Shown piece by piece: positions 4,818 to 48,307 of a DNA stretch of 64,000 bases; positions within the stretch are counted from its first letter, which is position 1, and each line of letters begins with the position of its first letter. Below the pieces are notes generated by a model. It was given only the letters and a program-made list of their open reading frames with translations. It made no database searches and was not told the origin of the DNA. The DNA comes from Nitrosopumilaceae archaeon (GTDB taxonomy: Archaea; Thermoproteota; Nitrososphaeria; Nitrososphaerales; Nitrosopumilaceae): assembly GCA_965214835.1 (NCBI GenBank), contig CBDCCK010000002.1, positions 672,001 through 736,000 on the forward strand. Direction: 5' to 3'. The position numbers and the translations under genes were made by a program.

Positions 4818-5570
4818 TCAAATCTCCACGTTTCCTGCCCTGTACCAGCCGTGATCCAGCCTGAAGTATTTGTCTTTGACTGACTGCCACCGTTCCTCGG
4901 ATCTTTTACCCGTAGTACTTCTTATCCATACCGCATATGCAAAAAAATCCGCAAGCTGTAATATTGGATGTTTCTTTGGATCGCCGTTTATGATGCGGCC
5001 GCTTATGCTGCTCAGTTCCTTGTGGTGCCTGAACCGTAGCACTTCGCGCAGTCCGGCCATGACGCGCTCTGCCTTCTTTCTTGCCTTCTTGTTGAGCCTT
5101 TCATAGACGGCCTCTCCCGTCCCGCCGTGTTCTTCAAGAAAGTCCTGGAACCTCTCCAGCATTATCAGCATCGCATAAGACTGCGGATCAGCCGGAATCG
5201 AATATCTCTTGCAGTGGTGTTTCAAATCTATCGTGACTGACAAAAGCACGCAATCGGATTCCCTGATCATGTCAAAAACGTCGTCTGCGAGCCGCCTTCT
5301 TTGCATGTCTGACAGCCTGTCATAAGGGTAACAACTGTTCCTCAACGGATGGTAGTGAAGCTTGAATCTTTCCGGTAGCTGTATGTCTTTGAAGTATTTG
5401 TCTATTGTAAGCCCGACTGCGTCGTCCAGCGCCTCCTTTTCATTGTCACTTGCGATGATTCCTGCCAGTGTGAAGAAGCGGGAACTGCCATCTATGACCT
5501 GGTAGTTCTCATCGAGATAATCTCCCAAGTCCCCGCTTTCATCAATATACAGGCGATACAACAACAGCAT
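4818..5570 (-). CDS. DUF3800-family protein
   Basis: N-terminal YIDESGD and C-terminal LQLADFFAY motifs. Confidence 0.8.
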   Translation of the reverse strand: MLLLYRLYIDESGDLGDYLDENYQVIDGSSRFFTLAGIIASDNEKEALDDAVGLTIDKYFKDIQLPERFKLHYHPLRNSCYPYDRLSDMQRRRLADDVFDMIRESDCVLLSVTIDLKHHCKRYSIPADPQSYAMLIMLERFQDFLEEHGGTGEAVYERLNKKARKKAERVMAGLREVLRFRHHKELSSISGRIINGDPKKHPILQLADFFAYAVWIRSTTGKRSEERWQSVKDKYFRLDHGWYRAGNVEI

Positions 5571-5639
5571 GTGGCTGTGCTGGGATATAAAATCTGGGGG
5601 CGTCTTAGCCTGTTGAACACATGATAAAAACGCCCCCGC

Positions 5640-5765
5640 CGTAGCCAGGGTGATGGATCAACCCCTCGTTATGCATGTGCTTCGCGCACTACCTGTTGAA
5701 TGGGGATATCCGAGCTGCTGTGTTCCTGTGCTACGCGCACTGATGGATGAATGCAGCTTCTGATC
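5640..5765 (+). ncRNA. Putative IS110 bridge RNA (target-binding and donor-binding loops)
   Basis: Two structurally parallel internal loops; GTTATGCA and CCTGTTG match the target, TGTGTTC and ATGGATG match the circle junction; transcript ends are estimates. Confidence 0.85.
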
Positions 5766-5802
5766 TGTCAAACCATATCCGAAAGGAGGTGAAAGAAAAG
5801 GA

Positions 5803-6878
5803 TTGAGAAGCATAGGAATAGACATTGGAAAGAGAAAATGCGGTGTGCGTCATCGACGCCAAGGGACACGTGCTAGAGGAGGGCTCGTATAACAACACGT
5901 ACAAGGAGGCATCAAAGCTTGCTGCACGACTGAAAAAAGAGTACAAAAAGTGCCAGGCCGCGTGCGAGTCAACGGGCAACATGTGGCTAAAGACGTTCAG
6001 GGCATTCGAGGATCAGCACATCCCCATACTGCTTGCAAACACCCTCAAGATGAAGATAGTATCAGAGACCAGCGTAAAGACTGACCCGATAGACGCAAGG
6101 AAGATAGCCGAAACGCTCAGGGCCGGAATGATACCACGATGCTACGTGGCATCAGCAGAGCTGAGGGATGTCAGGGAGCTGATGAGGTACAGGATACGGA
6201 TGGTGCAGGAGAGGACCGCAGTCATAAACGGGCTGCACAGCTTGGCTTGACAAGTACGACATAGCCATAGATGCATCCACGATGTACTCCAAGAAGGCCA
6301 TACGGAAGATCTCCGATACCAGGCTGAACATGCCAAACGATGACAGGATACTGGCAAGCTGCACCAGGAGGATTGCATCAGTTACAGAGGAGATAGGCCA
6401 GGCAGAGGAGGACATAGGAAGACAGGCAGGATCGAACGAGGATGCCAAGCTGCTGTTGAGCATGACGGGAATAGACGCCTTTGCAGCAATGCTGCTGATA
6501 GCAGAGATCGGTGACATAACCAGGTTTCCATCGCCGAACCAGCTTGTGTCCTGGGCCGGCATGTGTCCCCGGGTGTACCAGTCGGGGGACCGCGAGTACC
6601 ACGGCCGCATGAAAAAGGATGCAAACCGCAGGATCAACTGGCTGATGATCCAGATAGCCAACGTCGCCGTACAGCACGACGACAGGATGAAAGAGTTCTA
6701 CGAGAGGGTCCGCAAAAGGAACGGCAACAACCACGTCATAGCGATAACGCATGTTGCAAACAAGATGCTCAGGATAATCTGGCACATGCTGACGACAAAG
6801 ACTGCGTATTCATCGCGCAATGCTGCCCTGTACGACAAGAAGATCAAGAGGGTGACAGAACTGGCGGGAACGGCATAG
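5803..6878 (+). pseudogene. IS110 DEDD recombinase with two frameshifts (~5840 and ~6245)
   Basis: IGID, CEST, KTDPIDA and YQSG motifs; GGAGGTGA upstream; split across three frames. Confidence 0.88.
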
Positions 6879-7127
6879 GATTACCACCTTCCTCCCCCAC
6901 CCACCCACCCAATGATCCGCCCGCACCCTGGCAGGTGCGACAGGACTGGCTCGTGCGTATTGCTAGCGTTAGCTATAAAGCACAGCCCGGCCGACTAGGC
7001 ACGGATCAGAAGACGAAAGGAACGTTGCCATGTTACTGGCGGGCGTTTTACCATGGATGCATAACCGTGCCTGAACGCGTAAAAACAGCCAGTTTTTCGT
7101 GCCTAAAATCGGGGTTGTGCAACAGGC

Positions 7128-7739
7128 TACCCAGTACCACCGGGCACTCCTATGAAAAGATGGGACGTGGTGGAAATCCCATTGGAGAGAAATCCACAGG
7201 ATACTAGAAACGAAAGTTGGAAAATACAGGGGTCAAAATCAGAATGGGATAAACTACGATTCAAAATAACTGTTCATGAAACATTATCAAGATCAAAATG
7301 GATAGCGTTGTTAAATGACATGCACAAAAAATATGGCGTTGAGTGTATACAAGATCTAAACGATGAGAGATCAAGTCTGGGATTCATAAAGCCTCGTGAA
7401 TTCCAACAGCGTTTTGAAAAAAGAAAAAAACACGAACGTAATGTACAAACCACACTCTTTTCTCAGGAGCCATTTCTAACGATTCACAACTATGATGTAC
7501 AACCAAGAATGACCTATCGATGCTCTGGCTGCAAATCAAAAAATCCTCATGATCAGCAGATTTTGGAGTGGGGAGTTTACGAATGGATTAGAAAAAATCC
7601 CGACAAAATTGAGCAAGTATGGAAAAACCTACACATTGGCGAATCAGGGTACGATACAAGCTTCCTTGTGGGCAACATGTTTCTTCATCGCTCCTCCTTT
7701 ATGATAATCAGCATATTCCGGCACAAAATCGACATTTAG
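7128..7739 (+). pseudogene. 5'-truncated hypothetical protein of a type often found next to DUF488 genes
   Basis: Frame begins at YPVPPG directly at the MITE end; continues WDVVEIPLERNPQDTRNES and LEWG. Confidence 0.55.
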
Positions 7740-8144
7740 AAGATTCGGATTCCTAATGATCTCTTTTAACAGGTGCCTGTGACACGGTGTGCCTTCCGGT
7801 TCATAGCACAGCAAGGTTACGTGGGAATAGTTTGATTTGGCCTTCAATGATTTTATTAAATTGACACTGTTCTGATTTTCTTGCAATTCAAGTTTGAATG
7901 ATGGTATAAAATCCTCCCAATGGATTTGCTCGTTTTTGTATCTGCGTAACAGTTCTTGGCTGGGCGCAAGATCCCTCATCCACCTATCAAAATGGGTTTT
8001 TTTGACGCCTCTGGGGTAGTACCTCGTTATTAGGACTCTTAGGCCATCACCGTACTCCTTTGGTTTGTATATGCTCTTTGTCTTAATCACTTTGGATGCT
8101 TTCAATTTTATTGTAAGCCTCCAATAGTGAAAAATTTCCAGCAA
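7644..8144 (-). CDS. DUF488-family protein (YeaO-like); true start probably at VIKTKSIY
   Basis: DGLRVLITRYYPRGVKK, DLAPSQELL and TLLCYE..CHRHLL motifs. Confidence 0.85.
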   Translation of the reverse strand: MLEIFHYWRLTIKLKASKVIKTKSIYKPKEYGDGLRVLITRYYPRGVKKTHFDRWMRDLAPSQELLRRYKNEQIHWEDFIPSFKLELQENQNSVNLIKSLKAKSNYSHVTLLCYEPEGTPCHRHLLKEIIRNPNLLNVDFVPEYADYHKGGAMKKHVAHKEACIVP

Positions 8145-8205
8145 CAGCTAAAATTCTTCATCAAGTCTAGGCGGATTTGCCTCTTTTTAGCTTTTTCGGT
8201 CACTT

Positions 8206-8630
8206 GTACGAGGCCACCTATGTTTTGACGTGTTTTGACAACCTGTCTAACATACCACGATCATGCCGATCAAATACGATGCCTGCACGACATCAGCATT
8301 ATGAAAGGCCGCCGACCCACATACCGCAAGCTTGAGGCCACAATCGTGTCAGTCACAGACAGAATAAGCACGTTAGAAAGGAGCCTAAAGGCAACGAACA
8401 GAATGCTGGAGGAGAAAGACAAGACAATCGAGGAGCAGGGCAGGCAGCTCCGGTACTACGAGAACGAGAACTCACCGCCGTCTCCCGCAAGATAAGTGGG
8501 CAGATCAAGGGAGGGGAGCTCTGGATGAGGAGGTGGTCGTGGGTTATGACGTGCATACTGACGTGGAGGGCAAGGGGCAGATCCGTAGCAGACGAGGTCA
8601 TGAAACTGGTTTAGGAACGTGACCTCATAC
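8206..8630 (+). mobile_element. Internally deleted IS66 derivative (425 bp)
   Basis: Both TIRs retained; 5' part (KGRRPTYRKLE) joined directly to the 3' part (KISGQIKGGELW) of the element type at 30445-32110. Confidence 0.85.
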
Positions 8631-8639
8631 GATCTATGA

Positions 8640-9767
8640 ATGAATGCAAGAGAACAAAAAGCAAGACAAATCATGGAAACTCCCGGACACGCCACACAGA
8701 TCATCGGCACCGACAACTTTAGGGTCAGATCGCAGTCTGATCCCTCCAAGTTCTACACCGTTACAAGGACGGGCAACGGGTTAGTCTGCGAGTGTCCAGA
8801 CCACCGGAACAGGAGGGCAGACTGCAAGCACATCAAGGTAATACTGGAGCTTGTCCGAAAAAACGTGTTCGGACACGACGGGTTCAGGATCATGGAACGC
8901 TCCAAGCTCAAACTCTGCAAGTATTGTGATTCTGGCAGGATCGTGAGGCGGGGCAAGAGAAAGACCAAGAAGGGTGATGCCCAATTGTTCAAGTGCAACG
9001 ATTGCCAAAGGGCATTTACTGCAAACTTTGGTTTTGAGGGAAAGCAGTACGATGGCAGGATTATCACCGGAGCCCTACAGATGTACTATACGGGAATGTC
9101 GGTACGGGATATCGCGGATCATTACGAGATGATGGGAACCGACGTGTCGTTCAGGACCATATACAACTGGGTTGACGAGTATTCCCGGCTTGCGGCCAAG
9201 TACATCAATTGTATAGTTCCACGTGTTGGTAGTTGGTTCAGGGCAGACGAGGTATGGATCAAGATATCCGGAAAACAGTGCTATCTGTTTGCCTCAATGG
9301 ATGATGATACAAGATACTGGCTGGCCTCCGACCTTGCAGACAACAAGTTCCAGCACAATGCGGATTCATTGCTGGACATGACCAAGAAACAGGCCGGAAA
9401 GAATCCCCGAAACTTCATCACGGACGGCCTGCCAGCCTATGCCAAGTCCTCAAGGAAGGTATTCGGAAAGGGTACGAACCACGTGAAGCACATCCACCTA
9501 GCCGGAAAAAGAGACCGTGACAACAACAACAAGATGGAGAGGCTCAACGGCGAGATCAGGGACCGCGAGAAGGTGTTCCGTGGCCTCAAGAAGACCGACA
9601 CTGCAATCCTTGACGGCATGAGGGTCTACTACAACTATACGAAAAAGCACGGTGCACTGGACGGCCAGACCCCGGCGAAATCGGCCCTGATAAGCGTGGA
9701 CGGTACAAACAAGTGGAAGACGATAATCCAGAACGCCAGTTTGAGAAGGGATGTAAATCAGGTTTGA
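8640..9767 (+). CDS. IS6-family transposase with SWIM and zinc-ribbon N-terminus
   Basis: CECPD..CKH, CKYC..CNDC, RADEVW, ITDG and NNNKMERLN motifs; right TIR gattgcacagaacc at 9793-9806. Confidence 0.85.
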   Translation: MNAREQKARQIMETPGHATQIIGTDNFRVRSQSDPSKFYTVTRTGNGLVCECPDHRNRRADCKHIKVILELVRKNVFGHDGFRIMERSKLKLCKYCDSGRIVRRGKRKTKKGDAQLFKCNDCQRAFTANFGFEGKQYDGRIITGALQMYYTGMSVRDIADHYEMMGTDVSFRTIYNWVDEYSRLAAKYINCIVPRVGSWFRADEVWIKISGKQCYLFASMDDDTRYWLASDLADNKFQHNADSLLDMTKKQAGKNPRNFITDGLPAYAKSSRKVFGKGTNHVKHIHLAGKRDRDNNNKMERLNGEIRDREKVFRGLKKTDTAILDGMRVYYNYTKKHGALDGQTPAKSALISVDGTNKWKTIIQNASLRRDVNQV

Positions 9768-9956
9768 ATCGAGAGAAGTCTCATATCACGAAGATTGCAC
9801 AGAACCGGTCATAGCATACCTTATGTGCTAGATTGACGTAGCTATGCCATGAATACTGCCCCTGTCTGGAGATCAAGGATCTGCTCTGACTGCAAGCGAG
9901 TCCGCTGCCAGCCCGGATGCAACTGCGACTGTCACTGGCAGCGCTGGCGCTAGGAC

Positions 9957-10033
9957 TAGCCTGATACATGACCCTGATTTTGGGCACAAAAAATAGCTGT
10001 CTTGCGCGTTCAGGCACAGTTATGCAAGACTGC
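9957..10033. mobile_element. Degenerate second copy of the TAGCCTG MITE
   Basis: Reverse complement aligns with 7058-7129. Confidence 0.7.
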
Positions 10034-10078
10034 TGGGACTGCAAGCTTTATGAGTGCCTTGGAGTTCCCTCAATCCAT

Positions 10079-10607
10079 ATGAATTTCGTCCATGGAGTAA
10101 TAGCTGCAGTGGGACTGCTGGTGGCTGCCAACTTGGCCATGATTTCGGCTGACCTGGATGGCGGGGGCGCCGCCGATCATGCCAGGGAGCCTGCAGCACT
10201 TGACATGATGGCAGAGTCGGCGGGGATGCCGGCTCCCGTGGCCAAGGATATGCCTGGCGCAGCGGCGTCTGACGTTGTCGGAGAGCCCCCCACGTGAGGG
10301 GTACAGTCAGTTGTACAGCGAATCTGAAAGGATCCCCTATCTTGGCGTAACCTACCGCGAGCTCCGCGACATGGGATATTCTGAGCTGGAGGGCAGAATT
10401 AACGCAAATCTGACTCCATACTTTGACGGCATTGATTTTATGAGCCAGGGGGAGCTTGAGGGCCTTCGGGAGGCAGTAAAGGAGACCCGGAAACAGAAGT
10501 TTCGGTTTACCAACACGGATGACATTGAAAAGGTCAGGGTTCAGCTGGCCTTATCCAAGCTTGCACACCTGTTTAGGCTAGTGGACGACAGGGCAAAGAC
10601 AATCTAG
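10079..10607 (+). CDS. Secreted or membrane-anchored hypothetical protein, probably one gene split by a frameshift at the C-run near 10290
   Basis: Signal-like MNFVHGVIAAVGLLVAANL; overlapping ORFs 9968-10297 and 10275-10607. Confidence 0.45.
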
Positions 10608-10691
10608 TGACACATCTAATTCATGATGCCGTTTTAGTCTGATCTTAATGTCAACAGTTTCGATGTATGAGGCCATGTACCCCTGCTGGGC

Positions 10692-11788
10692 ATGAAAATC
10701 ACAGTTGCATGCAGATTCACGCCTAATTGCCAGGATTGGATGTCAGGACGGCCTAAATTTCTTGGCCTTCTGGATGCCATCATAAAAAACCTGGAAAGGC
10801 TCGGCGTTGAGTGCAAGAAGGTCGTCGTCTACAGGGGACGCATGGGGAACTTTATCCTGAGATTTCCAGTACTAGGAGCGAGGAAAAAAAGAGGCTTTGA
10901 GGAGATTCTCGACGAGTCCAAGCCGGATGCCGTAATACTGGACAACCCAAATGATCTGTGGATGGTTGCCGCCGGCAGAAAAATACCGGTGCTGGCGTAC
11001 TTTTGGGATCAGTGGATACACAGGAAAATATCAAGGGAGGACGGGGGATTCTTGACATCCTGTGTCTGGCGGTACGGGCACGCATTTGGGATCCCTGCCT
11101 GAAAAACGCAGATGCCATACTTGCCTAGACAGACTCCATAGCGGACACCATCAGGAAGCACTATCCAAAAAACAACACAGTGACGTTCCCGTATTCGAGC
11201 ATAGACACGAACAGCTGGAGGGGAGAGGGGCCCGGGGGCGCCATGGAGCTGAGGCACCCGTGCGTGGGCCTGCTACAGAACGCTGGCCGCTGATCCAAGA
11301 CAAGGGAGATGCTCATCCTGCCCAAGGTCGTCGAGGCGCCCCCACACGTAACATTCTACTGGGCCGGTGACGGGCGCTACCGCGACAGGATACTGGAGCC
11401 GCTGGCCGGATACGACAACTTTGAGTGACTGGGGCCGCTGGAGGGCCCCGACAGGATCATGGAGTACCTCTCCTCGATCTACGTCTACGGCCTAGTCAGC
11501 GGCATTGACATGTCGCCGTACTCGCTCAAGCAGGCCATGTCCATGGAGAAGCCTGCCATTGCAACGGATACCGGCGGCGTCTCAGAGACGATGCGGGACG
11601 GAACGACGGGGTTCCTGGTGGGTCTGGGGGACTACCGGGGGTGGACAGAGAAGACCACGATGCTACTGGGAGACGCAGAAAGGGCGCGGGACATGGGAAG
11701 CCAGGGACGCAGGTTCGTGCAGGACAGCTGGGACAGCAGCGTGGCCGCAGACAGGCTTGTTGCGATCCTTGGGGAAATCAAAAAGTGA
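10692..11788 (+). pseudogene. GT4-family glycosyltransferase pseudogene
   Basis: C-terminal SLKQAMSMEKPAIATDTGGVSE..DGTTGFLV motif; frameshifts and an in-frame stop upstream. Confidence 0.8.
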
Positions 11789-11932
11789 CATAGCCGGCGG
11801 GACGGAGCCATGATGGTCCCTGCAGGTCCTCGTGGAGGCGCTACGAGGGGGACGGCTAGATCAAGCTCCACCTTTGGGCTCTGGCCAGCCAGGATGCCAG
11901 CTTTCTGAACAAGTCGTACATGTCAAATTTTT

Positions 11933-12126
11933 GTATGATGCCACGTACCCTTGACAGTCAGTAGACTTTGCCAAAAATGACGCAAAAACTGCCTGATTTT
12001 TTTGATCCGTACAGGTTGCGCATAAAGTCTACTGACAACGATACTGATCCATGTACTATGGGCGCGTATGATGTCACCTGCCCTTAACCAGACAGGTACG
12101 AACTGGCGCGCAACTATGATTTTCAT
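11933..12126. mobile_element. Cluster of MITE fragments (IS66-type ends plus a ~70-bp IS5-type MITE at ~11962-12031)
   Basis: tagacttt...cgcataaagtcta matches the IS5 TIR and the insert at ~16027-16104; gtatgatgtcacc...gattttcatg is the IS66 MITE core. Confidence 0.6.
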
Positions 12127-12278
12127 GTATGGTACTGATTAGAAATTTTCAACAATAGAAGGCATTTCCCTGCGTAGTTCATGCCCATGTGTGTTGAGGA
12201 ACTTTTGCTTTACACAGCAAGCAAGGGGACGTGGCCCCATACAAAACATCAAATATAATACCATAAAATACGCTGATC

Positions 12279-13364
12279 GTGCAGATCATGCCAAGCCCCG
12301 TATCATTGAGGCACCGCCTTTTACGTAGAATAGAAAACAGGGCAAAGGATCTGCTGTTTGTTGATAGCCGATTGCACAACTATCAGATCAAATGTCCGGT
12401 CTGTAGCCGTTCAAGAAACGTTCAAAGAACTGACTTTTGGAGGTCTTTGAGGTACCCAAAGGCATCCACGTTTTTGATGCGGCACCGGTTCAACAGCATC
12501 ACGTCGTTCTTTCGTACCCTGCCGGATTTTCTCATAATAGGCATTGCCAAGTCGGGAACTACGTCGCTGTACGGCCTGATAAGCGCGCATCCACACGTGA
12601 TTCCCGCACAATCCAAGGAGGTGCACTATTTCACCGATTCGCGGAATTATGAGATGGGTACGCTGAGGTATCGTGCTAGGTTTCCAAGCGTGCCGTACAA
12701 GCGCTGTCTTGCCGTACGATACGGCCAAAAAATACTGTCCGGTGAGGCATCCTCCACCTATCTGTTCCATCCAATGGTGCCTAGTAGGGTCAAGGCCCTA
12801 CTTCCGGACGTTAGGCTGATCGTGATACTACGCAACCCCGTTGATCGAGCCTACTCTGAGTATCACATGCAGGTTAGAGAACGATGCGAGTCGCTGACAT
12901 TTGAGGATGCAATAAGGGCAGAAAAAGACAGGACGTCATACGAGATGGAAAGGGCAAGATCTGATCCGCGGTTTTACTGGAGCAACCTGCACCGCTACTC
13001 CTACCTTCAAAAAGGCCACTATGCAGAACAGCTGACTCACTGGTTCAGATACTACAACAAAGACCAGTTTCTCATCCTGACCCTGGAGGAGCTAAAGGTA
13101 GACCGGCGGGGAGTACTTGACAGGGTCTTTGAGTTTCTGGGACTAGAGCCGTTTGATGTGGGCAGCCTTGACCCCATGCCGAGCTATTCCTGGATAAAAC
13201 AGTTCATACACGAGCCCTCCGACGAGACTGACCGCGGGTTGCTAAATGCATACAGTTACCCCGAGATGAATCCCAAGACGCGTGCAATGCTGCTGGATTA
13301 CTTCAAGCCGCACAACGAACGGCTCTCCCGGCTCTTGCAGCGTGACTTTGACTGGAACGGCTGA
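12279..13364 (+). CDS. PAPS-dependent sulfotransferase; true start probably downstream of 12279
   Basis: LPDFLIIGIAKSGTTSLY (5'-PSB), KEVHYF and LRNPVDRAYS (3'-PB) motifs. Confidence 0.9.
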   Translation: MQIMPSPVSLRHRLLRRIENRAKDLLFVDSRLHNYQIKCPVCSRSRNVQRTDFWRSLRYPKASTFLMRHRFNSITSFFRTLPDFLIIGIAKSGTTSLYGLISAHPHVIPAQSKEVHYFTDSRNYEMGTLRYRARFPSVPYKRCLAVRYGQKILSGEASSTYLFHPMVPSRVKALLPDVRLIVILRNPVDRAYSEYHMQVRERCESLTFEDAIRAEKDRTSYEMERARSDPRFYWSNLHRYSYLQKGHYAEQLTHWFRYYNKDQFLILTLEELKVDRRGVLDRVFEFLGLEPFDVGSLDPMPSYSWIKQFIHEPSDETDRGLLNAYSYPEMNPKTRAMLLDYFKPHNERLSRLLQRDFDWNG

Positions 13365-13711
13365 CTTGCGACAGCCTTAGATGACCTGTGATCGGTAGCA
13401 CGGTGCCAGTACCACCATCCAGACTTGGAAACTTCCGATCGTATGAGGCAGTGTCTATCCTAGCCATTCGATCACTTGCATGCTGCCTACCGTAAGTTCT
13501 CAAATGACAAATTTTTCAGACCGAATCATATTTTGATCACCGTGTCTGACACAACGCATGACGGAGACGACATGGGAAGATCTGAAGAAGGCGTGCAAGG
13601 TGGAAAAGGATCCACATGTGATGGCCAAGATACCTGCAACAAACATGCTGTCCGAACCTCCAACGATGCATCACTGAGTTACTTCTGAACACGGGTTAAA
13701 ACGCCCGGGCC

Positions 13712-13825
13712 CGTAGCAGTGGTGACGTGGATCAACCGCTGTCTTCCCATGCGCCCCGCGCGCTGACTTCTGAATGCGGTAATTCCGAGCTGCAGTGTTC
13801 GTGCACCACGGCGTGCTGATAGATG
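13712..13825 (+). ncRNA. Second putative bridge RNA, 3'-truncated
   Basis: Same scaffold as 5640-5765 with guides GTCTTCCCA, ACTTCTG, GTGTTC and ATAGATG. Confidence 0.8.
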
Positions 13826-13840
13826 GTACGAGGTCACCTA

Positions 13841-14932
13841 TACTGATGATCATTGAAAATTTCGCCTGATTACACATCTTGTAAAGGTTTATAGCTCCCC
13901 ACCATGTCACTCCCGGCATGAACAAGACGAAAATCCTCACGGATGCCATGCATGTCGAAAAGGATCTCAAGATTCACACCAGAATCATGGCGGTGCGCTC
14001 CGTGCTGCTTGGCAACACCACCGCACAGACTGCAGAGATTGCCGACGTGACACAGCGTACCGTACAGATGTGGATCGAGAGATTCGAGCTTGACGGCATC
14101 GACGGCCTCCGTGACTCCTAACAGGGACAAAAAACCAAAGGTTCCGGTCGGCAGGATAAAAAAGATCGCCACAAAGTTGCGTAGGATGGAAAAGCTCACC
14201 CCGAAGAAGCTGTGCAACCGGGTGCGCCGCAGGCTGCATGTCACATACAGCGTGGGAAGCATCAGAAGAATCCTGCGCACGATGGGATTCTCGCCAAAGA
14301 CGTCAACCACCAGGCTTGCAGATGCTGCCGACGCAAAGGCGGTAAGACGGTGGCAGGGGGCGGCAAGAACCGCGATCAAGCTTGCAAAAAGGCGCGGATT
14401 TAGGATAGCCGTACAGGACGAGTCGATATTCGTCAGTACGGGAAGGGACGGCAGAAAGTTCTGGTCGCCCGTGGGGGACAGGATCGAGGTGCAACGATCC
14501 GGCAGAAGGGAACGCGTCGCGGTATACGGAACGATTGCAGACGACGGAACCCGGCTGATGCGCACATACGACAAGTTCAACAGCGCAAACTTTGTGCATT
14601 ATCTCAAGCAGGTGCACAAAAAGCGGGGAAAGGTTCTGATTGTGATGGACAACGCAGCACAGCACAAGACCGGAAAGGTCCGCAGGTACCTGAAGAAAAA
14701 TCCAGACGTCGTCCTGCTGTACCTGCCGGTAGCCAGGCCGGAGCTGAGCGTCATAGAGGCAGTCTGGAAGGATGCCAAGTACGGGCCGGTCACGTCGGCA
14801 TTTTACGAGACGGTAGATCACCTCAAAAGGGCCGTCTCGGAATACTTTAGGACGTGTTCCATCAAGGTTGACATCTATAGGTACCTTGAGCGCAGCTTGT
14901 AAGGGAGGCGAAATTTTCAATGGTCATCAGTA
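13841..14932 (+). mobile_element. IS630-family element, copy 1 (transposase split into 13918-14121 and 14090-14902)
   Basis: TIRs TACTGATGATCATTGAAAATTTCGCCT / AGGCGAAATTTTCAATGGTCATCAGTA; TA duplication within CCTAGG; QDES, DNAAQH and PELSVIE motifs. Confidence 0.9.
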
Positions 14933-15064
14933 TAGGCGTGGATCAGAGAGACACAATTTGCCACCGCTAAAGGGCCCGGGCGTTTTAACATAGATGGGAA
15001 GACTGGCCTAGGGTGGCAAACTTTTACAGATGAATTATAAGTATGTTTTTGAAAACATAGCCTG

Positions 15065-15430
15065 TTGAATCTCCAGCGGATCTATGTCTACGTGCGTCAG
15101 GGGTGGCATGTAATATCCCCGATATTTGGATTTAGCAACTTTATCATGCTGATCTATCTTACACTGACGTTTGAGGTTCCACTTTACGTGTTTGCGCCGT
15201 TGGTGACAGCTCCGATCCTGATAGGACTGGTCTTTACAGGCAAGTTATTCAGAGACAAACAGCAGCCAGTAGACGCGAGCATGAACTACTTCCGGTCACT
15301 GGAGGTACTGCGCAGTGAATCCATCCTATGGGAACAGATCGGCAGAATCTGCAAAAACGATGGAATACCCCTGAATGAGGAGTTTGTCAAGCGCCTTGAC
15401 GTGCTGAAAAAGGCGGTAAGGAAGAAATAA
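15065..15430 (+). CDS. Hypothetical membrane protein
   Basis: 121 aa with two hydrophobic segments; AT-rich TATA-like sequence upstream. Confidence 0.6.
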   Translation: MNLQRIYVYVRQGWHVISPIFGFSNFIMLIYLTLTFEVPLYVFAPLVTAPILIGLVFTGKLFRDKQQPVDASMNYFRSLEVLRSESILWEQIGRICKNDGIPLNEEFVKRLDVLKKAVRKK

Positions 15431-21873: not shown

Positions 21874-23050
21874 CAGTCTTCCCAGAAGTAACTCAGGGAG
21901 GCACCGGTGGAGGGGGTTGGGGCAGCGTCCTACAGTCCGATATACCGCGCTTGATCACGTCATTGAGGCACTGCTGGGTGATCAGGGGATCCTCGGCAAT
22001 GATCCCCGTCACGCTCCCAATCATCGCGTCTGCCATGGCCCACGCGTTGAAGACCGCAGCCGAGTACACAAAGTACAGCATCCTTGCGACCGGGCTCTTA
22101 CTGTGGATCCTGACCCTTGCGTTCTCTATCATCCTGTATCCGGTCTCGATCCCCCACCTGCGGCTGTACTCGTCCGGATCTATTCCGGGCACGTTGGTCG
22201 CAAATCCGATGAGCCGCTCGTGTGCCGGCAGCTTTTCCACGTTTGTCTTGCCCGACCGCTTCTTCCTTCTCTTTGTGATGACCATCGTGTACCGCGCTGA
22301 CTTGGAGGTGCCGGATACGACCGACTCGACCTCCACTCTTCTTTTTATGCCATCATGTTCGCTGAGGGTCGCAACGACGGCATCCGTGTTCTTGCACGGT
22401 ATGATGTACCCGACTCCCGCCGCATCCAGCTCGGAGATGACTGCGGCCGAGAAGAACTCGCGGCCCAGCATCACGACCCCGGGCTCGGCCCCCGCGCGGC
22501 GTGCAGAATCGATGGTCCTACGCACGAAATCGGCCGTATCCTCAAGCGCCGGCATGTGCAGTACGCCCAGTACAAGGCGGCAGTGCTTTACCAGGCACTG
22601 TATGGTCATATAGCGCTCAAAGACTGCCGTCCCGCTCTTCTTCCTAGAGCGGACAAGCTCCCCGCCGTGCTTTTTGTCGTAACGCGGTATCAGGTGCATG
22701 TCTATTGCCGCATCCAGCCTCTGGCCCCCGGTGATCAGCCCCGTCTCCCTCAGCTGTTCAAGCTGCCGGCCAACGGTTCCTGCAAGGCAGTCCAGGATCT
22801 AGTCGGGCTCGGACCTTATTGCGACGCTACGGATTCACTCGTCGGTGGGATTGCGGAGCAGTCCCGGGGCCGTCGGCACCTCGCGTGCAGACATTATACA
22901 GCCGGCCACCTGCCCGTTGGAATGGACGCGCGCGTCCGGAACCTGAAAGTCGCCTGCAGTATAGATGGCGTTGTGCCTGTCCGAGGCCCCGACGCACGGG
23001 GCCATGCCTTCGCCGACGGTCTCCAGGGGGTTGTCCAAAAAATTTCCGCA
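21874..23050 (-). pseudogene. ISH3-family transposase remnant
   Basis: YSRRWGIETGYR motif; TIR CAGTCTTCCCAGAAGTAAC at 21874; 5' part fragmented. Confidence 0.8.
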
Positions 23051-24104: not shown

Positions 24105-24196
24105 GTATGTGGTCACGTCCCCTTGTTAGCTAGGCACGAAAATCACAACCATGCATCTAATTCGTGCCTGACTGATGGGGGTAGGTGACCTCGTAC
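24105..24196. mobile_element. 92-bp IS66-type MITE
   Basis: GTATGTGGTCACGTCCCC...GGGGTAGGTGACCTCGTAC; 8-bp TSD GATATTTG. Confidence 0.92.
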
Positions 24197-24218
24197 GATA
24201 TTTGTGTTGCCTTTTGTG

Positions 24219-24339
24219 CAGTCTTCCCAGAAGTACCACGTCAAATTATCCCAAGCTCGAAACAATTCAAATGAGGCTGCCTGTAGATCCGCTTGCCACC
24301 TCCTGCACCGCCGCGAGTCGGTTGCTTCTGGGAGGACTA
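24219..24339. mobile_element. 121-bp MITE with ISH3-type TIRs
   Basis: CAGTCTTCCCAGAAGTA...TGCTTCTGGGAGGACTA. Confidence 0.8.
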
Positions 24340-25328: not shown

Positions 25329-26300
25329 ACCTTATGCGTAATCGACCGGATCGAAATATTCCGACGGTGGCCGGCCACACATGCAAGGCTGACGGCATCA
25401 CATGACGTGTATGAGGGCGGCAGAGTCCGTATATAGTGCAGCTACGAGCCATTACAGCTGGTAAAAACTACAGTATAGTGCGGCATCGTGTGGCGCCGCA
25501 ATGCGCTCCGTATCGTGGTATCAGAACCCATGCATGAGCTTCTTGTTCCGCTTGTCCCACAGCAGCCTAAAGTTGGCAAGCCCGGCCGTCACCTGGAACT
25601 CCCTGTCGAACTCCTCGGCGGTCCCGTCGTACGGATCACGCATCCGCTTGTACTGCTTTATCCGTCCTATGGCGTGCTCTACTGTCACCCTCTTGCTGCT
25701 TATCCTCCTGTTCTGCGCTTTCTGTTTCTTTGTAAGCTTGCCCCCCTTGGCTTCTTGTGGGGCTGCATGGATATGACCACCGGGTACAGATTCTTGATTC
25801 CCACGTATCCCATGTCCGAGAACAGCTTTACCTTCTCGTCCTCGGGGTGCTTTCTGTTGCTGCGCATCCTGGCAGTCAGGGTTCCCAGATCCGAGGGGTT
25901 GTTCTTTATCATGGTGAGGTCGTGCGCGCTTCCGGGCGCCGACTCGCTTGCATATGTCGCCAGTCCCTTCTTGTCTGCAATCACCCGTGGGTGTTGCGCG
26001 TAAAGTCCTTCTTCTTGCCCGAGTACGCCCCCCTTTCTTGGTTCCTTGTCCAAGGGGCGCTGTATGTCGATGTGCGTGCCGTCTACAATCACGGTCAGAT
26101 CCGGGACGATCTCCTTGACCCACTCGATCGTGCGGGCGTTTCGTATCCTACGGGATACGGTGTCCGGCGTGGGCAGTATCTTGAGAAATATCATGTCGCA
26201 ATACTTGAGGTACCTGCATACCGTACTCTGGTCTATGCCAAAGAATGCCGCAAGCTGCTCCTGTGTCGGGTTTCCGTACTTGCGCATCAGCGACATCAGC
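25326..26300 (-). mobile_element. IS5-family (DDE_Tnp_4-type) element, 5'-truncated and frameshifted
   Basis: End TAGACCTTATGCGTAA and the following ~400 bp match 33027 onward. Confidence 0.88.
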
Positions 26301-26385
26301 AGGCTCGAAACAATCCAAATGAGGCTACTGCAGATCCGCTTGCTACCTCCTGCACCTCCACGAGTCGGTTACTTCTGGGAAGATG
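26301..26385. mobile_element. Partial ISH3-type MITE
   Basis: Aligns with 24255-24339. Confidence 0.7.
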
Positions 26386-26472
26386 TGGGCCCGCACCGGG
26401 TTCATGTCTGATATGAGACTACATGGACGGCAGAGGCGATCGGGACGCCTACGATATCCCTACAATTATTTT

Positions 26473-26571
26473 GTATGTGGCCACGTCCCCTTGCTATCTA
26501 GGCACGAAAATCACAATCATGCATCTAATTCGTGCCTGACTGATGGGGGTAGGTGAGGGGTAAACTCACAC
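26473..26571. mobile_element. IS66-type MITE with a chimeric right end
   Basis: Standard body, then GGGGTAAACTCACAC, the TIR of the second IS66 subfamily. Confidence 0.75.
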
Positions 26572-45875: not shown

Positions 45876-48307
45876 CAGTAGTTGAAAATGTACCCCACAA
45901 ATCCCGCTAGCCGGGATCGTGCCGCCGTCCTGCTCTTGCCCGGCATGCATCCTGGGCACAAAAGGCCATTGCATAAACGGCCACCAGAGTCACCAGCGCC
46001 TGCAGCGTCATGCTGCGGATCCTGGGATCATCCGAATCCCTCATTGTCAGCCATATGTTGCATACTGCAAGCGATACGTAGAACAAAAACATCCGCAGTG
46101 CCGGGTTCTTGCTGGTGGTCCGCGGCCTGATGCTCTTGGCACAGCGGTATCCGGTCTCTATGCCCCACCTGTCCCGGTACTCCTCTGTCACATAGTCTAT
46201 CAGCTCCGCATAGCCGCGACAGCGCTGCGTGGTCGCAAACACGTGGTACCGATCAAAGATGTTCTTTGCCTTGGATTTGGGGATCTTCTTGATGACCAGC
46301 GTGAACGTGAACCTCTTGCCGTCAGATGATTCCAGTGTATACCTTGATACTGCCGGCCTCCTGCCGCGGGCATGCTGTACTATGGCCTTCTTTATCCCGG
46401 GCGTCTTGACTGCGGGCATGATGAACGCAAACCCCATCTGCGATATCACAGACATCACGGCCACCGAAAAGAACCCCCTGTCAAGCAGGACGACGCTGCG
46501 CCTTGACCAGAGCCTGGCCTTGATGCCCAGGGCGATGCATTTTCGGAGCATATCACGCACCAAATCGGCCTTTTCGTCGCCCCGCCTCGCCGGGCTACAG
46601 GCCGTATGCACGTCGGGGCCGGCCTTGGATGTCAGCTTGCACGTCATGTACTCCTAAGTTGACGGTGCCCCTGTCGTGCTTTGACTTTACCAGGTGCTTC
46701 ATGTCGGGGTTCTTGTCGTACCTGGGCATCTTGGTCTCGTCTATGGCAACGACTGCCGCCCTGCGGCTTCTTCGGAGGGCGCGCAGCTGTGTACTCACCG
46801 CCTCGACTGCCGTGCAGTGCAGCATCGCGTCGCATCTTTTCCTCATCGTGTACGGTTTCATGGATTTCAGCTTCCCGAGAAGCCAGGCCGAGGTGGGCAC
46901 CGCGACCTTGGCACCCTCCATCTTGAGGTACAGGCGGTTTTGAACGGTCTCGTTTGCACATTTGGAGTGCTCACACATGGCCACGACCAGGTGGGCGGCG
47001 TCGGCCAGGCCCCACATGGCGTTGTGCCTTGAGGAGAACTTGATCTGCAGCAGGCCCATTGCGGCGACCAGCAGCTTGAACTTGCTCTGTCCGTAGCTTG
47101 TCCGGTGTTTCTGTTTGCCCTGCTTGCCCATCAGGGTAGACTGGAACGGCGTTGTTTATAGATCGACTGGCCAAAAAATCATGTCAGTCAGTTCAAAACA
47201 ATTGTCTTATACAGAAATTAGGTCCGCCTAAGATAAGGCGTACGATCGCTGACTATTTCAGGCTGTACCGATCAGATAAAGACATGACAAGAAAGATGTC
47301 GGACAAAGAGATCAGGTATATCGTCAAGGGACGTAATGCCGGAAAGAGCGCCACGTCGCTGGCCCGTGACATGAAGGTGACGCCACGGCACGTGAGGAGG
47401 ATTTACGCCAGGTACCGCCGGACCGGAAAGATGCATGTGCAACAAAAGGCTGGAAGAAAGGCCGCACCGCAGCCCGCGGCAGGCCAGGTGCAGGCAGTCT
47501 TGGACATGCACTGTATAGAGCACGTGGGCGTGATGCGCACTGCCATGCGCCTGCAGGATGCAGGTCACATTATAAGCTACAACAGCGTATATCGGATAAT
47601 GAAGGAGCAAAGACTCGTTACTGCATCAGATACCAAGTCGGGCCAAAAGAAATGGCTGCGCTATGAGCGCAAGTACTCCAACGCAATGTGGCACGTGGAC
47701 TGGCACGAAATGAAGGATCCACGCCTGAGAGGGCTCAAATTAGTCACGTTTTTGGACGATTCCTCCCGGTGTGTCACGGCGGCACGGACGTTTGCAGATG
47801 CCACATCAGAAAACGTGGTGATAACACTCAGGGAGGCCATAGGCAGGTTTGGCAAGCCGGCCACCATACTGTCTGACAACGGCAGGTGCTTCAACGGCGG
47901 CCGCAGCAAGAAGAACATGCCACGCGGGACGTGGACGCCGACTGCCTTTGAGGCCGAGCTGCTGGATCGGGGCATCGGGCTGATAAACTCCAGGCCGTAC
48001 CATCCGGAGACCAACGGCAAGTTGGAACGGCTCCACGGCAGCATAGAGGCTGAGATCCGCCACTATGAGAGCTTGGATGCATACATCAAGTATTACAACG
48101 AGCGCAGGCTACACTTTGGGCTGGACATAGCCCACCGCCAGACACCCATCATGGCGTTCTCGGACAAAACTGCCACAGAAGCGATCAGGAAATCCGACCC
48201 AAAATGGATGGAGAGGGACATCAATGAATAGCGGACATTATTTCCATATAACACAGTCAGTTCAAAACAATCAGACACTTAAAAAGGGGGTACATTTTCA
48301 ACTACTG
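45876..48307 (-). mobile_element. ISH3-family element (transposase 45907-47131, frameshifted) carrying an IS481 insertion
   Basis: 21-bp perfect TIRs CAGTAGTTGAAAATGTACCCC; 5-bp TSD ATGAA. Confidence 0.92.
47203..48255 (+). mobile_element. IS481-family element, intact (transposase ~47284-48231)
   Basis: TGT...ACA ends; 16-bp direct repeat GTCAGTTCAAAACAAT. Confidence 0.92.

Follow-up and report, generated by a model that had tools for sequence, protein, structure and literature searches.

We analysed a stretch of 64,000 nucleotides (nt) from the genome of a Nitrosopumilaceae archaeon (hereafter G000; 3.22 Mb, G+C 52.6%), namely G000:C2:672001-736000 (contig CBDCCK010000002.1, assembly GCA_965214835.1), which we call the window. 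Two insertions related to the IS110 family of insertion sequences (IS) lie near its start, and each splits the end repeat of another mobile element. We consider it very likely that the insertion sites of these IS110-family elements are chosen by a bridge-RNA-like transcript, which is encoded in their left end and aimed at the end repeats of resident IS and of MITEs (miniature inverted-repeat transposable elements). The SSU rRNA locus of G000 scores 1452.6 bits with the archaeal Rfam model against 1089.2 bits with the bacterial one, in line with an archaeal host. An earlier note on this DNA had taken both insertions for IS110 elements. This stands for element 1, an IS110-family element with a split gene, but not for element 2, which is a relic rather than an intact IS110. 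Element 1 and the MITE that it splits are laid out as follows (window coordinates, with the strand in brackets; a slash within a sequence marks the junction throughout):

5606-5615 (+): left half-site of element 1, TAGCCTGTTG, the outer 10 bp of the end repeat of an IS5-type MITE of about 84 bp
5616-7059 (+): element 1, IS110 family, family A, 1444 bp, recognized by its protein domains and BLAST paralogues
5654-5767 (+): predicted bridge RNA core, from sequence reading, structure counts and guide-flank matches
5654-5660 with 5761-5767 (+): outer stem of the RNA
5662-5665 with 5702-5705 (+): stem of the target loop
5667-5676 (+): right-target guide, CGTTATGCAT
5677-5689 (+): hairpin of the target loop
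5690-5700 (+): left-target guide, TACCTGTTGAA
5712-5718 with 5752-5759 (+): stem of the donor loop
5719-5726 (+): 5' arm of the donor loop, TGTGTTCC
5728-5740 (+): hairpin of the donor loop
5741-5751 (+): 3' arm of the donor loop, TGATGGATGAA
5825-6250 (+): open reading frame (ORF) with the N-terminal DEDD (RuvC-like) domain of the IS110 recombinase (PF01548, 83.4 bits, cut-off 29)
6282-6878 (+): recombinase C-terminal part (Transposase_20), read in the +1 frame (PF02371, 95.1 bits, cut-off 21.3)
7060-7129 (+): remainder of the split MITE, from CATAACC... to its intact partner end repeat

Seven more full-length family A copies, 97.9-98.4% identical to element 1, are found elsewhere in G000. 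The left half-site closes in TG, the shared core, and the right flank is CATAACC (7060-7066). When the two flanks are joined they give a 17-mer that recurs inverted at 7113-7129 (minus strand, 1 mismatch), as the earlier note had claimed, and on this ground element 1 is placed 10 bp inside one end of the MITE. At 3 or fewer mismatches the 17-mer has 4 matches against 0.10 expected by chance. The rebuilt target has the marks of a MITE, being about 84 bp long, non-coding, present in many copies (41 BLAST matches in G000) and bounded by a 17-nt end repeat with 1 mismatch. The stop that closes the N-terminal ORF arises from a 1-nt insertion near 6242-6246, and the two recombinase fragments score 90.1 and 128.9 bits against the model NF033542 ('IS110 family RNA-guided transposase'), each alone under its cut-off of 140. 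Additionally, the 3' strand of the RNA outer stem (5757-5768) is complementary to a 12-nt stretch of the right end (7001-7012, 92%), and the same complementarity is complete in L005 (176-187 with 1415-1426, 100%); the IS110 right end thereby holds a copy of GGATCAG, the start of the RNA.

Element 2 has only the ends of an IS110 element, belonging to a second family, B:

13676-13687 (+): half-site on the left of element 2, GAGTTACTTCTG, from the inner portion of the end repeat common to an ISH3-like IS and 121-bp MITEs, closing in the TG core
13688-14996: element 2 overall
13688-13825 (+): family B left end, 138 nt, 99.3% identical over 137 nt to a full-length copy
13826-13840 (+): 15 nt, GTACGAGGTCACCTA, from the end repeat of an abundant MITE of about 93 bp, by comparison with the MITE at 24105-24200
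13841-14933 (+): IS630-family element (PF13358, 81.5 bits; NF033545, 141.7 bits, cut-off 100), its end repeats identified by reading
14936-14996 (+): family B right end, about 61 nt, with the subterminal repeat GGGCCCGGGCGTTTTAAC and the terminal ...ATAGATG
14997-15005 (+): half-site on the right of element 2, GGAAGACTG, the outermost 9 bp of the ISH3-like end repeat

The full-length family B paralogue is 1443 bp long (G000:C2:2665851-2667293). Domain and family profile searches detected no IS110 transposase gene within element 2, and the IS630 element inside it is bordered by TA on both sides (13839-13840 and 14934-14935). While the target loop of its left end is intact (GTCTTCCCAT at 13741-13750 and TGACTTCTGAA at 13764-13774), the donor loop is broken off after ...GATAGATG. 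In single-sequence folds the RNA region of element 1 gives a two-loop shape (z -2.29), whereas the left end of element 2, because its donor loop is cut, does not (z 0.08). Element 2 is a dead relic that was inserted and decayed later.

The end repeat split by element 2, TTACTTCTG/GGAAGACTG, belongs to an ISH3-like IS and its 121-bp MITEs, and the rejoined flanks form a 21-mer that occurs exactly at 21874 on the minus strand, in agreement with the earlier reading of this site. Its call of an ISH3 element at 21874 needs qualification: ISH3 is indeed the best-matching family, but the element is truncated and its 103.2 bits lie under the NCBI cut-off of 225. A full copy of this ISH3-like IS, 1284 bp long, is L019. 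The unoccupied matches that had been listed to the target of element 2 are all present: the 19-mer GTTACTTCTGGGAAGACTG occurs at 21874 (0 mismatches), 24219 (1), 24321 (3) and 26368 (3), four matches against 0.01 expected and reached in 0 of 100 shuffles, and the 14-mer core of the family B target is exact at 21876 and 24221. These sites belong to the following elements:

21874-23026 (-): truncated ISH3-like IS, its intact terminus (21874-21892) being an unoccupied family B target
24219-24339: 121-bp MITE with an unoccupied target at 24219-24237 (1 mismatch) and a degenerate one at 24321-24339 (3 mismatches)
26300-26386 (+): partial 121-bp MITE whose end at 26368-26386 is a near-match (3 mismatches)

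Two unrelated left ends, that of element 2 (cut at 13825/13826 of the window) and L013 (G000:C2:504085-504218, minus strand), are cut at the identical point. In both, the cut falls just past the ...GATG of the donor arm that mimics the right end and is followed by the GTACGAG... terminus of another repeat family; the donor-arm DNA may have been used as a false right end at both. IS630-type end repeats adjoin the CTA/GGC point of the IS110 right end in three copies of families A and B (window 14934-14936; G000:C2 about 662130 and about 1849605), a point that lies within CTAG in full-length copies. The MITE of about 93 bp occurs in the window at 24105-24200 and 26465-26560, with the ends GTATGTGGTCAC... 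and ...GGTGACCTCGTAC; it has dozens of copies (at least 40 among the best 70 BLAST matches), and the copy at 24105 shows an apparent 8-bp flanking duplication, GATATTTG.

To place these two insertions in the context of the genome, IS110 termini were collected across G000 by BLAST with the ends of both elements, which gave 33 left termini whose flanks were classified by reading; a loose pattern search for left ends was set aside, with its 81 matches mostly false and family B missed. Twenty-eight of the 33 left termini lie in four types of end repeat (15 in T1, 6 in T_A2, 6 in T2, two of these being variants, and 1 in T3, as listed below), and five are unclassified (G000:C2 10110, 225882, 504218, 2105748 and 2928844). 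The eight orphan right ends comprise 2 in T1, 4 in T2 and 2 unclassified. At least one flank is repeat DNA in 17 of the 18 two-ended copies, so that IS110 insertions in this genome fall mostly in repeat rather than non-repeat DNA, as the earlier note requires. The four target types are:

T1, TAGNNTGTTG/CATAAC: IS5-family IS and MITEs of about 84 bp; insertion 10 bp from the tip; 88 sites at 3 or fewer mismatches, with inverted pairs of 80-89 bp (8) and 1240-1504 bp (6)
T2, CAGTCTTCC/CAGAAGTAAC (tip first): ISH3-like IS and 121-bp MITEs; insertion 9 bp from the tip; 129 sites at 3 or fewer mismatches, with 33 inverted pairs of 110-129 bp as well as one IS of 1284 bp
T_A2, CAGTAGTTG/AAAATG: 1368-bp ISH3-like IS; insertion 9 bp from the tip; 28 sites, including 7 pairs exactly 1368 bp long
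T3, GGGGTTG/YCGCCTAATTC: MITE of about 130 bp; insertion 7-8 bp from the tip; at least 70 sites

The long T1 pairs encode IS5-family transposases (NF033579, 166.7 and 174.6 bits, cut-off 140). ISH3 is the best match for the transposases of the T2 and T_A2 IS, in both cases under the cut-off (111 bits for T_A2). The earlier note also held that the host families are expanding; this is shown for the 1368-bp IS alone, whose 7 full copies are at least 99.27% identical. Empty targets remain for both families: the family A 13-mer CCTGTTGCATAAC has 4 exact empty sites (30 at 1 or fewer mismatches) besides 6 full-length copies in exact half-sites, and the family B 14-mer ACTTCTGGGAAGAC has 57 exact empty sites (106 at 1 or fewer mismatches) besides about 10 occupied half-sites. 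Unoccupied termini of the 1368-bp ISH3-like IS (CAGTAGTTGAAAATGTACCCC), the target type of the sole IS110 copy with an open recombinase frame, lie in the window at 45876 (+) and 48307 (-).

Thirteen of the 18 two-ended copies rebuild a site that is present uninterrupted 3-25 times elsewhere, with paralogy beginning about 10 nt left of the junction; by family, such empty-site paralogues were found for 8 of 8 copies of A, 1 of 3 of A2, 2 of 3 of B and 2 of 4 short derivatives. In each of the 14 two-ended copies of A, A2 and B, left flank and right end have TG in common. Insertion is accordingly site-specific at a short shared core without target duplication, and the rebuilt sites have uninterrupted paralogues, as is characteristic of IS110. 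All eight full-length family A copies sit at TAGNCTGTTG/CATAAC, while their outer flanks differ in every copy and their right flanks are of at least four kinds of repeat body, including IS5 bodies at 1099698, 1940965 and 2130253; hence they represent eight separate insertions. Left-end homologues were found in 6 of the 40 other genomes searched. For one G010 copy, the 100 nt on its left match 7 further times, each match terminating at the junction, and for one G004 copy the 100 nt on its right give at least 40 matches, many of which begin at the junction; the G004 left flank and the G010 right flank have 1 other match each. Since these repeats end or begin at the IS110 junctions, the sequence comparisons indicate that the habit of inserting at the edge of multi-copy repeats reaches beyond G000.

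The aligned left ends, by reading, share an outer stem enclosing two modules, each made of a stem, an arm, a GNGC-N5-GCNC hairpin, a second arm and the closing strand of the stem. RNAalifold on a first alignment returned only the two hairpins plus other pairs, and the structure derived by hand was tested in its stead. On 17 left ends from five genomes the predicted fold pairs in 96.8% of 442 cells, with compensatory changes at 8 of 26 pairs; controls with the partners slid by 1-3 columns pair in 24-56% of cells, a contrast that is somewhat flattering as the structure was derived from the same related left ends. A set of 17 left ends from G000 only gives 96.8% paired cells with 3 compensatory pairs. 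G-U pairs are conserved and fit the plus strand, the pair 101-149, for example, being G-U in all 17.

The arms of the first module correspond to the target. Its 5' arm reads as the reverse complement of TG with one right-end base before it and the right flank after it (CGTTATGCAT for ATG/CATAAC in family A; GTCTTCCCAT for ATG/GGAAGAC in family B), and its 3' arm equals the left flank, TG and AA (ACCTGTTGAA in family A; GACTTCTGAA in family B). The arms of the second module fit the element's own ends in the same geometry (TGTGTTC and TGATGGATGAA in family A). By reading, the donor arm TGATGGATG(AA) equals the right end ...ATGGATG followed by the first left-end bases, and the donor arm TGTGTTC is the complement of G plus AACACA, with family B altering both together. 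The resulting guide pairs are CCTGTTG and CATAAC for element 1, matching the IS5-type MITE, and ACTTCTG and GGAAGAC for element 2, matching the ISH3-like end repeat.

For the comparison of guides with flanks, 43 elements were gathered, 26 from G000 and 17 from four other genomes with related IS110 elements (G002, G004, G010, G019). Four were dropped with unparsed loops (A2f_2772763, Bf_1751860, D_2928844 and L048), and the 39 usable rows gave 31 unique pairs of guide and left flank; the relatives' loci cover 17 of 23, leaving out L027, L028, L038, L042, L043 and L049. Twelve of the 23 readable G000 elements match their own left flank at all five bases before the core. Over the 31 unique pairs from the five genomes, 110 of 155 left-side positions match, against 65.4 (standard deviation 5.8) with shuffled flanks and 0 of 10000 shuffles reaching this value; with one pair for each of the 21 distinct guides, the count is 72 of 105 against 43.7, again with 0 of 10000. 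Kinship among the sequences makes these tests overstate independence. The guide and target pairs differ between genomes, and also within G004, where one copy has GGTCGTG with the flank CGTCGTG and another TTTTGTG with ATTTGTG. The earlier claim that the guides aim at the end repeats of other mobile elements is upheld, in that the targets are true transposon termini and the guides covary with the flanks.

We accordingly favor a mechanism in which the 5' arm of the first loop would pair with the core TG and right flank, to which it is complementary, while the 3' arm carries the sense sequence of the left flank and TG; the second loop would apply the same logic to the element's own right and left ends. 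The guides, of which G000 has at least four variants, would be set to point 7-10 bp inside the end repeats of resident IS and MITEs. By analogy with IS621, the RNA would be made and would guide recombination. Insertion physically splits the end repeat and would thereby disable that end of the host element, the 'destroying' of the earlier note, and multi-copy end repeats would provide low-cost landing sites, its 'safe harbour'.

Several observations weigh against guidance by such an RNA. The bridge RNA is a predicted fold only, and an Rfam 15 scan of 5500-15100 (E<=1) gave no match, whether Rfam has a bridge-RNA family not having been checked. The order of the guides is opposite to that of IS621, with the right guide first in both loops. 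Right-side matches (76 of 147 against 48.7 shuffled, reached by 1 of 10000 shuffles) are weaker than those on the left, and the relatedness of the sequences bears on both sides. The left flanks of 8 of the 23 G000 elements fit the guide of a co-resident element better than their own (for instance at G000:C2:1835893, 655667 and 3124520), which would fit guiding in trans or a later change of guide. In 5 of the 18 two-ended copies the left and right half-sites are mismatched; four of these have one or both flanks adjoining repeats, of unlike types, the exception being 1302397. Element 2, with no transposase and a broken donor loop, is incapable of acting, and 10 of the 11 full-length A and A2 copies, element 1 included, share one extra base that splits the recombinase gene. 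Finally, among contigs from 4 of 18 public runs (5300-15300), none joins across or spans either element, though such contigs break at repeats and are uninformative on excision; the public runs listed for this DNA include no RNA run. The prediction-only status of the RNA and the eight elements whose own guide is not the best fit would also suit a recombinase that reads the end repeats by protein-DNA contact or DNA shape, the arm matches then being non-guiding copies of the target gained at insertion. We think this improbable: four target sequences go with four pairs of arms on otherwise similar left ends, the covariation recurs in four other genomes, the arms lie within a conserved two-loop fold with compensatory changes, the second loop fits the element ends in the same geometry, and RNA guidance is experimentally established for the IS110 family.

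The flanks also speak to two explanations that dispense with repeated targeting. Composite blocks of IS110 and MITE might have been copied by duplication or by transposition of the host element, and three family A copies (in the window, at 2178172 and at 2580232) do share the same type of MITE on the right. However, the sequence beyond the 10-bp tip differs in 8 of 8 family A copies, the right flanks come from at least four repeat bodies, IS5 bodies among them, intact empty sites are present, and a host transposase should not mobilise a split end repeat, all of which makes such copying very improbable. Alternatively, the order of events could be reversed, with IS5- and ISH3-type elements and MITEs having inserted beside or around the IS110 ends, as might be imagined in a genome dense in nested elements where IS630 lies inside IS110 right ends at three places. 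Yet the cut in the end repeat leaves a tip of 7-10 bp at one flank and the remainder of the element at the other, the halves rebuild sequences found uninterrupted 4-57 times or more, and DDE elements do not insert as two halves; we regard this order as scarcely credible. Targeting of the end repeats by an RNA encoded in the IS110 left end remains our explanation.

The extra base shared by the split genes (AGCTTGGCTTGAC against AGCCT-GCTTGAC) lies at 6233-6250 in the window and is also present in L017, L006, L008 and L009, among others. The only open A or A2 frame is that of G000:C2:513238-514647 (L007), with 379 codons; its product (L007:184-1320) reaches 233.9 bits with NF033542. In relatives from G010 and G004 the gene is one uninterrupted frame, of 377 and 366 codons respectively, and the split is therefore a mutation rather than the normal form of the gene. 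Since the eight family A copies are 97.9-100% identical and all frameshifted, either a protein provided in trans moved them or the split gene is still functional. No open recombinase frame is found in the three family B copies of full-length size, and for this reason family B appears to have died out and to have left its targets open. The C-terminal part of the recombinase (6282-6878; L007:184-1320) also weakly matches the TIGR-Tas model NF052498 (27 and 28.5 bits, cut-off 100).

Four IS110 derivatives of 367-373 bp have no recombinase gene (L002:31-403; L011:57-427, minus; L012:55-421, minus; L003:31-399). Each retains the complete bridge-RNA region together with the right end and some of the 3' untranslated part, and carries guides other than those found in the full-length copies. 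As a tentative extension, which we hold possible but doubtful, these elements could belong to an archaeal IS110 lineage, shared with a Haloarcula plasmid, whose layout lies between those of the IS110 and IS1111 groups and which works in G000 as a guild. The intact gene at G000:C2:513238-514647 may serve the ten frameshifted full-length copies and several transposase-less copies of about 370 bp, which may share one donor code and carry their own guides; new guide variants may be cheap to try and may track the available families of end repeats. The eight flanks that better fit a neighbour's guide would be traces of guiding in trans.

Several features have counterparts in known elements. IS4321 and IS5075, reportedly described by Partridge and Hall in 2003, are said to be bacterial IS110-family elements inserted in the end repeats of Tn21. 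Like the elements here, they sit within another transposable element's end repeat, at a single position and with a single orientation. They are bacterial with the guide RNA downstream of the transposase gene, whereas ours are archaeal with the RNA upstream; moreover, the targets here are IS5-type and ISH3-like IS and MITEs, and several guide variants occur in one genome.

In the bridge RNA of IS621 the left guide pairs with the bottom strand and the right guide with the top strand, core included (Durrant 2024, PMC11208160), and the left guide is followed by a stem loop and then by the right guide (Hiraizumi 2024, PMC11208158). The elements here resemble IS621 in their predicted left-end RNA with target and donor loops and the same strand logic including the core, in that the base 3' of the right guide matches the donor, as in the handshake guide, and in targeting multi-copy repeats (repetitive extragenic palindromic (REP) sequences for IS621). 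They differ in the core, TG rather than CT, and in subterminal inverted repeats of 14-18 nt against the 2-3 bp reported for the IS110 group; similarity to the protein of the IS621 structure 8wt6 is low and confined to the C-terminal part (E 9.3e-09). The family B repeats are 18 nt long, 100% complementary and 7 nt from each end, and for family A reading gives about 14 nt, interrupted by an indel of 2 nt, the repeat finder not listing these. We take these lengths to correspond to the 7-17 bp of the IS1111 group.

In IS1111 elements the complement of the top strand comes first, and the IS110 group has the reverse order (Siddiquee 2024, PMC11187229). The right guide, which is the top-strand complement, comes first here, and the guide order is thus IS1111-like, though the RNA is upstream of the transposase gene. 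As in the IS1111 seekRNA elements ISEc11, ISKpn4 and ISPa11 (PMC11187229), long subterminal repeats go with natural retargeting between close relatives, but the seekRNA lies downstream of the transposase gene at the right end, as opposed to upstream at the left end. In Pseudomonas putida, ISPpu9 has a small non-autonomous derivative, MITEPpu9, thought to be moved by transposase supplied in trans (Pares-Guillen 2025, PMC12288879). The parallel is an IS110-family IS in repeats with such a derivative; MITEPpu9 has the Ssr9 small RNA gene between IS-like ends, whereas our derivatives of about 370 bp keep the bridge-RNA region with their own guides. The best match in a plasmid collection is an IS110 element of Haloarcula sp. 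GH36 (NZ_CP142029.1, L054; 34.6% amino acid identity over 88% of the query). By reading, it has the same layout, with a 15-nt subterminal repeat (CTATGAAAATCCTGC), a post-hairpin arm GAGATTGA equal to the left flank and a second arm ATAGGTG equal to the right end, but it is single-copy in NZ_CP142029.1, in contrast to the multi-copy elements here.

RNA-guided transposition and the targeting of multi-copy repeats (REP, attC) by the IS110 family are already on record. Among the papers listed, our literature search found no account of archaeal IS110 elements aimed at the end repeats of IS or MITEs, though the supplementary catalogues of Durrant 2024 and Siddiquee 2024 may list such cases. The mechanism and the habit being known, the present case is a well-documented archaeal instance of the habit and probably of the mechanism. 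Possible novelties are the layout, with the right guide first, long subterminal repeats and the RNA upstream of the transposase gene, the count of guide classes directed at distinct transposon families within a single genome, and the transposase-less copies that bear guides. Elsewhere in the window, a 375-codon ORF at 8640-9767 combines an N-terminal zinc-binding region with an IS6-type DDE domain (NF033587, 115.6 bits, cut-off 125).

Finally, these findings leave the known mechanism unchanged but offer a natural case in which RNA-programmed recombinases appear to have been retargeted several times in one genome, on each occasion towards the end repeat of another resident transposon. This could shed light on the evolution of bridge-RNA guides and on the competition and mutual disabling of mobile elements. 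The combination of a right-guide-first layout with long subterminal repeats bears on the relationship between the IS110 and IS1111 groups, and the small guide-bearing derivatives suggest that the choice of target can travel apart from the enzyme.

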